Shown in pieces: positions 24,194 to 33,147 of a DNA stretch of 33,147 bases. A program made the position numbers and the translations under genes. The stretch lies in IMG/VR virus record IMGVR_UViG_2630968543_000006; one strand, written 5' to 3'. Numbering within the stretch: position 1 is the first letter of the stretch; each line of letters starts with the position of its first letter. This stretch comes from a virus (taxonomy: Duplodnaviria > Heunggongvirae > Uroviricota > Caudoviricetes). The notes under the pieces were generated by a model that worked only from the letters and a program-made list of their open reading frames with translations, was not told the DNA's origin and made no database searches.

Positions 24194-24400
24194 TGTTCAT
24201 TCCACGGCCAAAAACAGAGAAAGGAAACGACAGAGGCCAAAAAGCCCGTTTTCAGCACCTGTCGTTTCCTTTCTTTTTAGGGGGTGTTTTAAATAAAAAC
24301 ATGAAGTTACGGCGAAGAAGAACGGAAACGCCTTAAGCCGGAAAATTTTCATAAATAGCGAAAACCCACGAGGTCGCCGCCCCGTAACCTGTCGGATCGC
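24194..24400 (-). other. cos: cos region: cosB (24194-24370), cosN 12-nt cohesive end (24371-24382), cosQ side (24383-24400)
   Basis: Plus 24371-24382 aggtcgccgccc is the reverse complement of the lambda cohesive end GGGCGGCGACCT. Flanks match the recalled lambda left end (CGCGGGTTTTCGCTATTTATGAAAATTTTCCGG...) and right end (...CGACAGGTTACG). Confidence 0.85.
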
Positions 24401-24581
24401 CGGAAAGGACCCGCAAAATGATAATAATTATCATCTACATGTCACAACGTGCATCTACGCCATCAAACCACGTCAAATAATCAATTATGACGCAGGTATC
24501 GTATTAATTGATCTGCATCAACTTAACGTAAAAACAACTTCAGACAATACAAATCAGCGACACTGAATACGGGGCAACCTC

Positions 24582-24776: not shown

Positions 24777-25137
24777 ACATCCCGGTTTCTTCCACCATCG
24801 CACCGGAAAAGCGACTATGAGGGTAACCCTGCGTCTGTCAGCACAGTAAAACCCGGTGTGCATCGTTTTTGATTATTCCCGCACACTCACGCAGAAGGAA
24901 TTCCCCGTCGGGCTACGGTCATGGTTAATGCGGGAATACGGCGACGATACAGCGCAGCTAAAAGGGTAATGGACAGATAGAGCGGTTTATTTCATTCCAC
25001 AGGATTCTGAGTGCCCCCCCCTCCTCCAATAGGCTGAGCATCCACCTATATAGTTTTAATTTTCATCAATCCATTTAACTATCGTTTAATTGTTGTCACA
25101 TAGGATTCTGCCGTTTTTAACAATGCAGGATAATAAG

Positions 25138-26633: not shown

Positions 26634-26744
26634 AACCCCACCTCGCAGACAAAGCGGGTGTAAATTGAGGGAATACTACGAAACGTAACAGACTCGGAGT
26701 CAGTGAATAACTCAGGTATTGGGTTATCAGCTAATATCGAGACT

Positions 26745-26778
26745 CAAAAAATGGAAAAACCCGCTCGACGGCGGGTTT
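26745..26778 (-). terminator. Intrinsic terminator on the late-gene strand, about 110 nt upstream of S
   Basis: 8-bp stem aaacccgc (26757-26764) / gcgggttt (26771-26778) followed on the minus strand by TTTTCCATTTTTT. Confidence 0.5.
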
Positions 26779-27205
26779 AAGCTGTGTGACGAAGTAACCA
26801 CTCTTAACAGCATAACCAATTTTTTACGTACGTAAACCACTAAATGATATTTGCGAGAATGCTACCGAGTATTGAAAACACCACTACAAATACATAAGCA
26901 AATCTCAACAAATAACCAACAAATAATTTCCAGCGTTATTTTTAGCCGATTTAAATTGAACCTTCAAATTATAGAGCACTTATAAATAACAGCCATTAAT
27001 ATAAATTGGCTAATAGATTTATTTTTATTCAGCCAAGAGCCATGAATAGGATTCGATAGAAAAAAGTTCAGATAAAAATAGAGATCTACTTCACAAATCA
27101 AACGAGAAACCAAAACTTACATCTTGAAATAATCACATTGATTAGATGAATATTTATCGCGCAGTGACATCATTTTTTAATAATAGTTCAAAAAAAGGGC
27201 TCACG

Positions 27206-29733: not shown

Positions 29734-29896
29734 GATTCCTCCTTGCTGCCAGTCGCAACCATTTTTTATCAACCAGGCTAGCGGTATATCCGAGCAGTGT
29801 TGGTATTTCGGATGGCTTCAGCTCAGGTTTACGCTTACGACGATTTGGTACTTTGTAGATGTGTCCGTTCATGACACGAATAAGCGGTGTAGCCAT
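29726..29896 (-). CDS. ninE: NinE-like protein
   Basis: Hand translation gives the 56-aa [56 protein letters not shown]. Start overlaps the ybcN stop and stop overlaps the ybcO start. Below the track cutoff. Confidence 0.7.
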   Translation of the reverse strand: MATPLIRVMNGHIYKVPNRRKRKPELKPSEIPTLLGYTASLVDKKWLRLAARRNHG

Positions 29897-30351
29897 TACG
29901 CCTCCTGCTTGTCGCGCAGCAGCTGGAACTCGCAGCTCTGCGGAATAGTCAGGTGGCAGCCAATATTCATCGCCCAGGCTTCAACCTTACACAGGAAGAC
30001 ATACATCTCTCCGGTATCAAGATCGGAGGTATGGCGTAACGACTGGATAGTAGTGATTTCGCCGGTTACGACATCAACCAGGTCCTTGGTTTCATAACCG
30101 AGGTATGTGTGTTTGAGAGCATCTTTTACCCATGCTGCGGTAGCGAACGATTTCCCCCTGCTGATGAGGTATTCACTGATTTCGCTGTACCACATGTGGC
30201 TGAGTGCATTCTGGGAAAGACTGCGTCTCTCTCGCCACGGTTTAAGCACCATGCGAAAGCATTTGCCGTCTTCCAGATAAGGCTGGATCTGCTGACCGAT
30301 AGCGGTGAAGTTACCGCGATGCAATTTGATGCCATCTTGTGGGAGGTTCAC
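29896..30351 (-). CDS. ybcN: YbcN-like protein (DUF1367, nin-region protein)
   Basis: 151 aa, [61 protein letters not shown]...; matches DLP12 YbcN by recall. Confidence 0.85.
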
Positions 30352-30557
30352 GCTTCACCTCCACAGAGGTCAAACGCTAGATGCAAAGAATTGCAGGTGC
30401 ATTTCTGCATCTGTGAAAGGAGAAGATAGTTTGGATTGTATGTGCGCATAAACGTCCCCGTTTAGCGCAGAAGTCACCGGAGTTGTTCAGGCTCCGATTA
30501 CTTAATTATGGCAAGTTGATTATCGCAAATCAAAGGTTTTAATTGTGCTTTATTCTT

Positions 30558-30758
30558 TCAAGCGTTTCCTTCATACCAAAGCCTATAAAGTTTTTCTTCT
30601 TCGTTTGGGTTAATAGGCTCACCATGTTTTAATTTTTCAGTGTACAAAATTGTTGAACAAATCGCGGAAGTTAATCCAGTGATCGCCATCTGCTGCAGAT
30701 CGGATTTTTGTGTCCCCCCCAACAGACGATCTCCCATCCATGTAATAATTGTATCCAT
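30558..30758 (-). CDS. Hypothetical 66-aa protein
   Basis: ORF MDTIITWMGDRLLGGTQKSDLQQMAITGLTSAICSTILYTEKLKHGEPINPNEEEKLYRLWYEGNA on the same strand as the nin genes. No family recognised. Contains a C7 tract at 30714-30720. Confidence 0.4.
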   Translation of the reverse strand: MDTIITWMGDRLLGGTQKSDLQQMAITGLTSAICSTILYTEKLKHGEPINPNEEEKLYRLWYEGNA

Positions 30759-31351
30759 GCTTCAGCCCTTCTTAGTAAATAGTGTGTAGGGCGACTGAAG
30801 GACCGAGTTTATGCTTTTTCGCATTGCTTTCAGTTAGTAGACCGGTATCGCACCGGAAACAATCCTACGGCAAATTGGTTGTCTGACCTCTCGGTTTTTC
30901 GTGCATTAACCGATACCCACTACAGTCTCGGCGAAAGCTGCACACCCCCAAGGTGTACTGGTAGCACTCGGCACAGCCTAGCGCGCCACTTTCTTCTCAC
31001 TATCCAGTCTAATTTTATCCCCTAGTCAGACACTCAGATGTAGTGCTCCGCAGCGGCATGCGGGGGAATACAAAAACTCGGACAAAATTGGGCCCTCCTT
31101 TTTGAATCACTCGCGGGGATGTAGTTATTAATACATGGGAAAAGATCTGTTTTCAAATCCAACATTATATGGTTTCAATACCACGGGGTGGCTATGTGGC
31201 TATGTGTTTCTCATTATTATTTACAATCTACTGTAATCGCTCCGAACGCAAATGCGTCAATACTCGAATCAACTGATCATCCTGCCACGACTGAAATCTC
31301 AAATAGGCCGTTTCTCAAGTAAGAGATTTTGAATGCATTATTGGCTACTGA

Positions 31352-31378
31352 AATAAAAAACCCAGCGCCAACTGGGTT
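31352..31378 (-). terminator. Rho-independent terminator just after the 164-aa gene
   Basis: Stem aacccag (31359-31365) / ctgggtt (31372-31378), followed on the minus strand by TTTTTTATTT; 18 nt after the stop at 31396. Confidence 0.7.
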
Positions 31379-31395
31379 CATATGAAATTTTTTTG

Positions 31396-31890
31396 TCATT
31401 TCCAATTGCAAGACTGTGAAATTTTTTCCACAACCTTATCAATCTCAGACAAGTCAAACTCAACTACTTGCATAGTTGATCCATAAGGTTCAAACCCAAA
31501 AATAGCTTTTTTATGCTTAGCCAAGGTCTTTATAAATTGTATTGGTTGTGGAGCAAATGCAGAATCACCGCCTTCCCCACCTCCCCAAGCACTCTTGACC
31601 GGCTTTCCGCCATCTAACCGCACTGTAATTCTTGGGTTGTCCGAACCCATATAATCATTGAATGATAAATAGGCATCTGTTTTGTTATCACTACAACGCA
31701 ACACCAGTGAAGTTGCACGATCAGTACCTGCTTTGTTATATGAATCTGGTGATAAATTAAGAGCCACAAAGTCAGTCTGGTCAGTCATTTTATTTATCTC
31801 AGACTTTGTTATCCACGACCCTAACTTCTCTACACCAGCATTTGCAGTAAACGAGGCACTTATGACAAAGGCTATAATAAATTTTCTCAT
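31396..31890 (-). CDS. Secreted (periplasmic) protein of unknown function, likely an accessory (moron) gene
   Basis: 164 aa with signal peptide MRKFIIAFVISASFTANA. Has its own terminator and is separated from downstream genes by the ORF-poor stretch. No family recognised. Confidence 0.6.
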   Translation of the reverse strand: MRKFIIAFVISASFTANAGVEKLGSWITKSEINKMTDQTDFVALNLSPDSYNKAGTDRATSLVLRCSDNKTDAYLSFNDYMGSDNPRITVRLDGGKPVKSAWGGGEGGDSAFAPQPIQFIKTLAKHKKAIFGFEPYGSTMQVVEFDLSEIDKVVEKISQSCNWK

Positions 31891-32036
31891 AACCCTATCT
31901 CCTTGGATTTAAAGAACTAAATATTATCAAGTCTCTTGCCACTAGAAAACCCACTTTATTTCCAAACTCTGATGGCATTCCTGAAAATCCGCTTCATACT
32001 CACTTGCCCCGCCCTATCATCCTGAGTAGCTAACCG

Positions 32037-32210
32037 TTAAACAAACGTTCGCCAGACCTTACCATCAATGACCAGGATTCCTGCCCGCGCCATTTTTGCC
32101 GCAGCCTGATTTATGCTGGTTAATGTCACACCTGTTGTCGCAGCAACGTCCGGCGCACAGAAGCTCTTGTGCGTCTCCAGATAATGAATAATTGCCTCTT
32201 TGCCCGTCAT
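32037..32210 (-). CDS. Small winged-helix-like protein, 57 aa from ATG at 32210 (PapI/FaeA-like pattern); possibly the 3' remnant of a gene disrupted by the IS
   Basis: MTGKEAIIHYLETHKSFCAPDVAATTGVTLTSINQAAAKMARAGILVIDGKVWRTFV. The track ORF 32037..32402 runs upstream into the IS, which ends 8 bp from this ATG, and there is no convincing ribosome-binding site. Confidence 0.4.
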   Translation of the reverse strand: MTGKEAIIHYLETHKSFCAPDVAATTGVTLTSINQAAAKMARAGILVIDGKVWRTFV

Positions 32211-32217
32211 ACAGTTG

Positions 32218-33147
32218 TGAACCGCCCCGGGTTTCCTGGAGAGTATTTTATCTGTGAACTCAGGCTGCCAGATCATCGTTTCCGATGGAAGCATAATAAG
32301 CTTTTTCTGCTTCTGCCGGAGGAGTATGGCCCAGCCTTTCCAGCAATCGTCGATTGTTATACCAGTCCACCCACGTGAGTGTGGCCAGTTCCACTTCTGC
32401 ACGGTTTTTCCAGCTCTTACGGTGTATTACCTCCGCTTTGTAAAGACCATTGATGCTCTCCGCCATCGCGTTGTCATACGAGTCGCCTGTACTTCCTGTT
32501 GATGCCAGTAATCCGGCTTCCTTAAGCCGCTGTGTGTAGGCCAGCGATACATACTGAGAACCTTTATCACTGTGATGGACCGTGCCGGACGGTCGACGGG
32601 CCCATAACGCCTGCTCCAGTGCATCCAGCACGAATGTCGTCTCCATGGACGATGAGACCCGCCACCCCACAATGTATCCGGCAAACACATCAATGATGAA
32701 CGCCACATAGACGAAGCCCTGCCATGTGCTGACGTAAGTAAAATCAGCCACCCACAGCTGGTCAGGTCGTTCTGCCACGAACTGACGGTTTACGCGGTCG
32801 CCTGCGGCAACGGCTTTCCGGCTGATGGTCGTACGGACCTTTTTACCCCGGAGAACACCGGCAAGTCCCATAACCGCCATGAGACGTGCCACAGTGCATC
32901 TGGCCACTCTGATACCTTCCCGTAACAACTGACGCCAGACTTTACGCACACCGTATACCTTGTGATTTTCATCGTATACGCGCTGTATCTCTTTCTTCAG
33001 CCAGTCATCGCGCTGCGCACGGGCACTGCGTTTATCCGGATGATGTCGCTGTTGCTGACAGTGGTAATACGTTGACGGGGCAATATGCAGTTCGCTGCAT
33101 AGCGGTCCGACCCCGTACTGCTCACGCAGCTTATCCAGCAGTGGCAT
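32218..33147 (-). mobile_element. IS3-family insertion sequence (IS629/IS1203-like), terminal inverted-repeat end at 32218; extends beyond the window
   Basis: IS3-type end tgaaccgccccgggtttcctggagag beginning with TG at 32218, about 40 bp beyond the orfB stop. Element identity is from memory. Confidence 0.8.
32260..33147 (-). CDS. IS3-family transposase OrfB (DDE integrase catalytic domain); start is at the window edge and may lie upstream
   Basis: 295 aa. MPLLDKLREQYGVGPLCSELHIAPSTYYH...LWVADFTYVSTWQGFVYVAFIIDVFAGYIVGW...HHSDKGSQYVS...DNAMAESINGLYKAE carries the D, D...E hallmarks of IS3-family OrfB. Confidence 0.9.
   Translation of the reverse strand: MPLLDKLREQYGVGPLCSELHIAPSTYYHCQQQRHHPDKRSARAQRDDWLKKEIQRVYDENHKVYGVRKVWRQLLREGIRVARCTVARLMAVMGLAGVLRGKKVRTTISRKAVAAGDRVNRQFVAERPDQLWVADFTYVSTWQGFVYVAFIIDVFAGYIVGWRVSSSMETTFVLDALEQALWARRPSGTVHHSDKGSQYVSLAYTQRLKEAGLLASTGSTGDSYDNAMAESINGLYKAEVIHRKSWKNRAEVELATLTWVDWYNNRRLLERLGHTPPAEAEKAYYASIGNDDLAA

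Follow-up and report, generated by a model that had tools for sequence, protein, structure and literature searches.

Phage morons are promoter-gene-terminator cassettes inserted between conserved lambdoid genes. The lambdoid phage HK022 carries the put RNAs, ~70-nt double hairpins at pL and pR that act in cis as antiterminators. The prophage RNAs DicF, IsrK, and AgvB/AsxR are short, and the GOLLD and ROOL RNAs measure ~580–800 nt. GOLLD and ROOL are large ornate RNAs with Rfam families of their own, often found in prophages (Weinberg et al. 2017, PMC5737381), and their assemblies have been studied by cryo-EM (bioRxiv 10.1101/2024.12.08.627333). Regulatory sRNAs encoded by prophages include DicF, C0293/svsR, IsrK, and AgvB/AsxR (PMC12803456, PMC4104026). 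Of these, svsR is a 77-nt RNA located at the 3' end of cI (PMC12803456), and identity of the RNA described below with svsR/C0293 was rejected on this account.

The DNA analyzed here is a stretch of 33,147 nucleotides from a tailed phage (IMG/VR record IMGVR_UViG_2630968543_000006), referred to as the window. A region of its minus strand very probably constitutes the gene of a structured RNA of 331 nt (Table 1). This RNA is closest in kind to GOLLD/ROOL and to the phage morons, is a member of neither RNA family, and represents a new family of structured phage RNA. It shares with GOLLD and ROOL a large, intricate fold, an unassigned function, long-range covarying pairings, and a location in prophages as a separate transcription unit; in contrast, it has no sequence or structure match to them by cmscan, and it occurs in lambdoid prophages of Enterobacterales with no tRNA genes nearby, whereas GOLLD and ROOL are found mainly in Firmicutes and relatives. 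As in phage morons, a predicted promoter and terminator of its own are accompanied by a patchy presence, a fixed slot (replication genes to ninB), and varying neighbors, but the cargo is a structured RNA instead of a protein. Prophage sRNAs are likewise non-coding RNAs from lambdoid prophages, which alter host or competitor-phage biology. Most of them base-pair, whereas the present RNA is 331 nt long, conserved over its full length, and multi-helical, without extended complementarity elsewhere in the window or in carrier genomes. The put RNAs resemble it as lambdoid-phage elements that lie immediately behind a promoter and precede terminators; it differs from them in its size, its location in the nin region, and the terminator of its own that follows it.

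Location and Extent of the RNA Gene

A DLP12-like lambdoid prophage occupies the right end of the window. Its early-right genes all lie on the minus strand and follow one another, by decreasing coordinate, in the order IS3-family element (truncated by the end of the window), ren remnants, TagO/VasI-like secreted protein, a gap at 30759–31395, 66-aa ORF, ybcN/ninB, ninE, DUF1364 protein, and rusA. The original prediction had singled out this 637-bp gap as lacking any ORF of at least 60 aa, and recomputing the reading frames gave the same outcome in all frames. Its position was also borne out, with nin genes on one side and the TagO/VasI-like gene on the other, as were the GC-rich segments noted within it: the GC content is 46–55% in the RNA gene compared with 35–41% in both flanks. 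The gap had been called the only long stretch of this type; it is the longest, but three others of 301–512 bp likewise contain no 60-aa ORF (Table 1).

Table 1. Coordinates of features in the window and their properties.
Feature	Position	Strand	Remarks
Structured non-coding RNA, 331 nt	30790–31120	-	5' end ATCCCCGCGAG at 31120, 3' end ...TTCAGTCGCC at 30790 (gene assignment very probable)
P1, closing helix of one domain	31120–31115 with 31022–31017	-	
Second closing helix	31009–31004 with 30798–30793	-	
Loop-loop (kissing) pairing, 5' half CACUAC	31040–31045	-	hairpin loop, alignment columns 66–90
Loop-loop pairing, 3' half GUAGUG	30918–30923	-	hairpin loop, alignment columns 189–212
Predicted -35, TTGAAA	31151–31156	-	TTG(AAA/AAT/TAT/ATA) at the same distance in 21/21 lineages
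Predicted -10, TATTAA	31128–31133	-	TTTAAT, TTAAAT, or TTATAT in other lineages
Conserved block abutting -35	31157–31180	-	AACCATAT-N-TTGTATRGTT, imperfect dyad, ~25 nt
31-nt spacer	30759–30789	-	Shine-Dalgarno-like AAGAAGGG (~30766–30773) for the next ORF; no terminator
66-aa ORF	30558–30758	-	truncated copy of a 118-aa protein (L002 4035–4391)
33-aa ORF	31135–31236	+	antisense over the RNA promoter and its upstream region; judged spurious
Gene remnant, last 28 codons	31231–31314	-	stop at 31228–31230; intact gene is Turner CDS0075, 107 aa
Intrinsic terminator of TagO/VasI-like moron	31358–31379	-	
TagO/VasI-like secreted-protein gene	31396–31890	-	moron with its own terminator
ybcN/ninB	29896–30351	-	
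ORF-free stretch (<60 aa), 512 bp	26634–27145		
ORF-free stretch (<60 aa), 313 bp	24777–25089		
ORF-free stretch (<60 aa), 301 bp	24281–24581		

A nucleotide search, which the original prediction had proposed as a check, showed that the core of the gap is conserved in the phages Turner and IdasGreatGrand and in Klebsiella phages. In the E. coli phages Turner and IdasGreatGrand, most of the gap is present and 94% identical to the window. In two Klebsiella phages, the similarity is confined to the ~330-bp core, at 78% identity; there, a rho-independent terminator lies directly 3' of the core, and the flanking genes on either side bear no relation to those of the window. Aligned on the minus strand, the conserved block has sharp edges, running from ATCCCCGCGAG (31120) to ..CAGTCGCC (30790), and its strand is that of all surrounding phage genes. 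In phage Turner, two annotated "hypothetical proteins," CDS0073 (39 aa, L002 4498–4617) and CDS0074 (43 aa, L002 4667–4798), fall wholly or for the most part within the RNA gene and probably represent artifacts of gene calling, an example of gene callers placing spurious small ORFs over the RNA.

Conservation and Distribution

Pattern scans of IMG/VR and metagenome contigs, together with look-ups around a neighboring protein, yielded 32 distinct versions of the RNA that are 78–100% identical and have unrelated flanks; further homologue searches were carried out with profile HMMs (nhmmer). Named sources are Escherichia, Klebsiella, Enterobacter bugandensis, and Obesumbacterium proteus, and the most divergent homologue is L099. 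The homologues occupy the same nin-region slot, always between early/replication genes (ren side) and ninB-type genes, while the neighboring genes on both sides differ between lambdoid prophages. This ren-ninB slot is a site of variable accessory genes in lambdoid phages. Of 5426 complete E. coli genomes, 158 (2.9%) contain the RNA, one copy in each and strain EC93 among them, and no annotation covers it in any of these carriers. Lambdoid prophages of E. coli are among the most closely studied DNA, yet the RNA stands unannotated in ~3% of the complete genomes of this species.

The family is narrow. Scans of IMG/VR and the metagenomes with different conserved blocks returned the same versions at 78% identity or more and none more distant, a plasmid collection gave no match, and a scan of the GTDB species-representative genomes with an invariant 18-mer gave only chance matches in unrelated phyla. 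The 18-mer GAGAGGTCAGACAACCAA also occurs in four Saccharibacteria assemblies (L086, L092, L093, and L094), which have identical weak profile matches of ~27 nt; this is probably an unrelated sequence conserved in that phylum.

Within the 32-sequence alignment, segments of the RNA follow different phylogenies. The Obesumbacterium version (L203), for example, combines a 5' region of the L058/L059 type with a Klebsiella-type hairpin at columns 259–283. These mosaic patterns suggest recombination inside the 331-nt element, which would make co-variation between distant positions harder to put down to shared ancestry alone.

Secondary Structure and Covariation

The original prediction had described potentially structured segments and had proposed folding both strands. 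Folding of the single sequence was uninformative, being no better than shuffled sequences on either strand (z of -0.3 and -0.2), so that the structure is visible only by comparison with homologues; it is in the alignment that a fold emerges. When all columns were compared with all others for covariation, phylogenetic signal masked the result; a search for stacked runs of co-varying columns took its place and revealed a kissing loop. Combined with RNAalifold, this search gave a model of 16 helices and 86 pairs arranged in two domains.

The long-range loop-loop pairing (helix 5) joins alignment columns 76–81 with 198–203 and is found in three compensated versions, CACUAC/GUAGUG, CGCAAC/GUUGCG, and CACCAC/GUGGUG, with 99% of its cells paired. 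In the hairpin that carries the GUAGUG half, five pairs have changed on both sides. Across the 32 sequences, 97.9% of pair cells are standard pairs compared with 34.9–45.0% when the 3' partners are slid by 1–3 columns, a contrast that is inflated, as the model was built from the same sequences. This affects the counts of both-sides changes less: the 17 pairs observed compare with 12.8 in shuffles and at most 7 in the slid controls, and the 155 cells with 51.7 and at most 23, respectively. The covariation score was 0.223 compared with at most 0.058 in slid controls. On four of the five measures, none of 500 shuffles reached the observed values; the fifth, the count of further pair types, was not above the shuffles (383/500). 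The sequences represent only ~8 independent lineages, and all homologues are at least 78% identical, so the covariation is consistent but comprises few events. P1, the GAAAAA-loop hairpin, and several other helices never vary, and covariation is silent on them. Paired and unpaired stretches alike are near-invariant.

A strand test gave 98.1% paired cells as given and 86.8% on the reverse complement, and the 296 G-U cells fix the minus strand. Compensatory pair changes on one strand only are what is generally expected of a structured RNA. The original prediction flagged a real feature, but on the wrong strand and of the wrong kind. An RNA was among the options it offered, and this part was right; the product, however, is not a small RNA, but one of 331 nt, heavily structured and encoded on the minus strand.

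Comparison with Known RNA Families

The absence of a match to any known RNA family, as stated from the sequence originally, was confirmed with the Rfam search suggested at the time. Rfam 15 comprises 4227 models, including GOLLD, ROOL, HEARO, 6S, tmRNA, RNase P, riboswitches, DicF, C0293, IsrK, and C4. No family was assigned to the RNA in the window at the gathering threshold; in the region 30400–31800 at E ≤ 10, three chance-level matches all lay outside the RNA core, and seven homologue-carrying loci searched at E ≤ 5 gave nothing on the RNA. Neither tRNA-like nor tmRNA character was detected in the RNA.

The Breaker/Weinberg surveys consulted make no mention of this RNA, and searches of the literature, including searches with sequence strings, found no description of it in the papers covered. 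The first 200 of the 408 supplementary files of the Fremin 2021 catalogue contained no match, and the large candidate catalogues of Fremin et al. 2021/2023 may list the RNA without a name.

Promoter and Terminator Signals

Directly upstream of the RNA, a sigma-70-type promoter is predicted, with a 17-nt spacer and a distance of 7 nt from the -10 element to the conserved 5' A. The -35 element was recognized in the sequence and in the alignment of homologues; a simple promoter scanner did not list it. The same arrangement, TTGNNN, 17 nt, -10, 6–7 nt, and the conserved 5' A, was present in all 21 lineages inspected. The imperfect dyad that abuts the -35 is also conserved at the equivalent positions of the 20 other lineages, in most lineages with the sequence given in Table 1, although the upstream genes are unrelated; it may be an UP element or an operator.

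An intrinsic terminator is located 7–12 nt 3' of the RNA in 13 of the 21 lineages, and an ORF begins ~20 nt beyond it. In six lineages without a terminator, including those of the window, Turner, Enterobacter, and Obesumbacterium, the RNA runs into the 118-aa ORF. The versions L058 and L059 are nearly identical as RNAs and have different terminators (CCGCC.. and GCCACC..), which indicates that RNA and terminator are separate modules. The copy in the window, which has no terminator and is followed by a truncated ORF, may be partly decayed.

Genes Downstream of the RNA

The genes that follow the RNA belong to at least five unrelated families; their products include the 118-aa helical protein, a 183-aa protein, a 191-aa membrane protein, a 95-aa protein, and DUF1367. 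Except for DUF1367, these proteins had no Pfam or PADLOC match. The 118-aa ORF stands directly after the RNA in 6 of 21 lineages, and its family is limited to Enterobacterales prophages. Its AlphaFold model is a generic four-helix bundle (pLDDT 80) with no fold match (best Foldseek E ~0.3–0.4). At the truncated 66-aa copy in the window, phage Turner has ~130 bp more.

In Klebsiella phage Kp4856-1, the downstream protein of 183 aa (L003 3400–3951) contains an R-x4-H motif (RHNLLH) that is reminiscent, at the level of the motif, of HEPN nucleases. At the same position, other lineages encode a 191-aa protein that has hydrophobic segments at both termini. The 183-aa and 191-aa proteins may be exclusion or abortive-infection effectors.

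Proposed Function

With moderate confidence, we favor an autonomous "RNA moron" that acts in trans through its fold. As far as the sequences can indicate, the element has the attributes of a moron, namely a predicted promoter throughout the lineages inspected, a terminator in the majority, a place between conserved phage genes, and a patchy presence among E. coli genomes. Action in trans via the fold is suggested by the near-invariance of paired and unpaired stretches, by the multi-helical architecture, and by the fact that no complementary targets were found. Compared with the rest of the window, the RNA showed no significant complementarity; the best match, a 14-mer (E 0.03), lies in a lineage-variable hairpin, although seeds of 7–10 nt could escape such a search. 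The carrier E. coli genomes contained no extended complementarity to it elsewhere, each having one matching place.

According to this proposal, the sigma-70 promoter would drive an RNA of ~331 nt, which would fold into two domains with 16 helices tied together by the loop-loop pairing. In most of the phages the intrinsic terminator would stop transcripts begun at the RNA's own promoter, while in the lytic cycle N-modified polymerase coming from pR would read through it into the next gene. Such confinement, with the downstream gene reached only by antiterminated transcription from pR, would follow from established lambda biology. The RNA would act by its shape instead of as a base-pairing sRNA, either by self-assembly or as a ligand or decoy for a protein or nucleic acid of the host or of a phage, and it would confer an accessory advantage on the lysogen or phage, for example exclusion or counter-defense. 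Expression in the lysogen, action in trans, and a biological role are what we infer from the signals and the conservation described above. If the RNA does act in trans, it would be a case of a large structured RNA performing an accessory phage function, and its host, E. coli, readily lends itself to genetics, phage challenge, and structural studies. Against an RNA moron, no partner protein is conserved beside the RNA, and the six terminator-less lineages, with the RNA running into the 118-aa ORF, fit a 5' leader equally well.

The main rival is such a cis-acting leader or riboswitch-like sensor, in which the RNA would serve the gene that follows as its 5' untranslated region and would gate this gene by termination/anti-termination, by occlusion of the ribosome-binding site, or by a put-like modification of RNA polymerase; taken together, these variants appear possible but unlikely. 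A same-strand ORF always begins 30–60 nt past the RNA or its terminator, leaving no space for a further promoter, and the succession of promoter, structured RNA, terminator, and ORF is the classic layout of an attenuator. In the six lineages that combine the RNA with the 118-aa ORF, RNA and protein have diverged together, and the near-invariant unpaired stretches look like the binding core for a ligand or factor. However, the unrelated families downstream share no consistent functional class, and homologues of the 118-aa protein (51% identity) are also encoded where the RNA is absent. As a self-contained hairpin, the terminator stands 7–12 nt past the last helix, its stem differs between the near-identical RNAs L058 and L059 with no compensating change in the RNA, and no convincing mutually exclusive anti-terminator was seen by inspection.

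It is doubtful, though conceivable, that the RNA founds a new "ornate" class of functional RNA in enterobacterial lambdoid phages, with ribozyme, self-assembly, or sensor variants. By analogy with the RNA-only assemblies reported for GOLLD and ROOL, separate molecules might join through the co-varying loop-loop contact and so self-assemble; another possibility is that the fold has ribozyme activity or, as a sensor, controls toxic moron genes while infection proceeds. Were this so, a protein-free RNA would be a determinant of phage competition or defense in E. coli itself.

Coding Potential

A coding or dual-function RNA, with a micropeptide translated from a frame near its 5' end, appears very unlikely. 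The alignment of homologues contains no conserved ORF and no 3-periodicity. A near-perfect Shine-Dalgarno motif, AAGGAGG (columns 22–28), precedes a TTG-initiated frame of 12–19 codons (MSEFLYSPACRCGALHLSV), which ends at the invariant TGA of GTCTGAC; motif and frame together span window 31099–31026 (columns 22–95). The motif is kept in 31 of 32 sequences, and, together with the invariant stop codon, five synonymous substitutions are consistent with translation. Non-synonymous changes in the same frame, however, number at least eight, three E. coli copies (L005, L012, and L014) interrupt it with an early stop codon, and its TTG start lies inside a predicted helix. Its variable columns co-vary with pairing partners up to 125 nt away, for which coding offers no explanation, and past its stop a further 240 nt of RNA are conserved to an equal degree.

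The original prediction had also pointed to a 33-aa plus-strand ORF with a hydrophobic C-terminus as a candidate small membrane peptide. The ORF exists, but it is judged spurious and is not conserved: its frame and hydrophobic tail depend on an 8-bp tandem duplication (31188–31206) that Turner lacks, so that it is frame-shifted relative to Turner, and in all lineages beyond Turner the underlying DNA is unrelated and holds no counterpart. Type I pairs have an antisense RNA overlapping a small toxin ORF that is hydrophobic and conserved, and the pair of this type suggested originally falls away. Decayed early-region DNA, another of the options, applies to ~85 bp only. This segment is a gene remnant that matches Turner CDS0075 at 64% identity (blastx, E 1.8e-11) and was left when the TagO-like cassette took the place of the upstream gene.

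ToxI RNAs of type III systems carry tandem repeats and have a cognate endoribonuclease; membership in this class was rejected, with no tandem repeats found in 30790–31120 (Tandem Repeats Finder) and at least five unrelated proteins downstream. Neither a toxin-antitoxin system, whether of type I or type III, nor mere decay of the DNA is thus a credible account of the locus as a whole, for although the hydrophobic ORF, the ToxIN-like order of promoter, RNA, terminator, and protein gene, and the gene remnant lend these readings some color, the ORF is unconserved, the RNA has neither repeats nor a conserved cognate protein, and strong purifying and compensatory selection shows that the 331-nt core is not decayed.

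Other Features of the Prophage

The longest of the other ORF-free stretches, 26634–27145, lies directly upstream of a plus-strand porin gene (ompC/nmpC-like), between the porin and the lysis genes, and had no Rfam match at the gathering threshold. The only Rfam match in the window at this threshold was ALIL (RF01497; 58.6 bits, 33076–33147), a frameshift pseudoknot belonging to the IS3-family transposase at 32260–33147, which is cut off by the window end. A 121-aa ORF (32037–32402) partially overlaps the 3' end of the transposase ORF.

E. coli strain 582 (L001 3247–5216) is 100% identical to the window across 30500–31900. The IS3-family element of the window sits where strain 582 has a ren pseudogene and the replication gene P, while in strain 582 an IS21 insertion, which the window does not have, truncates ninE. 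One prophage is decaying by different routes in different strains.
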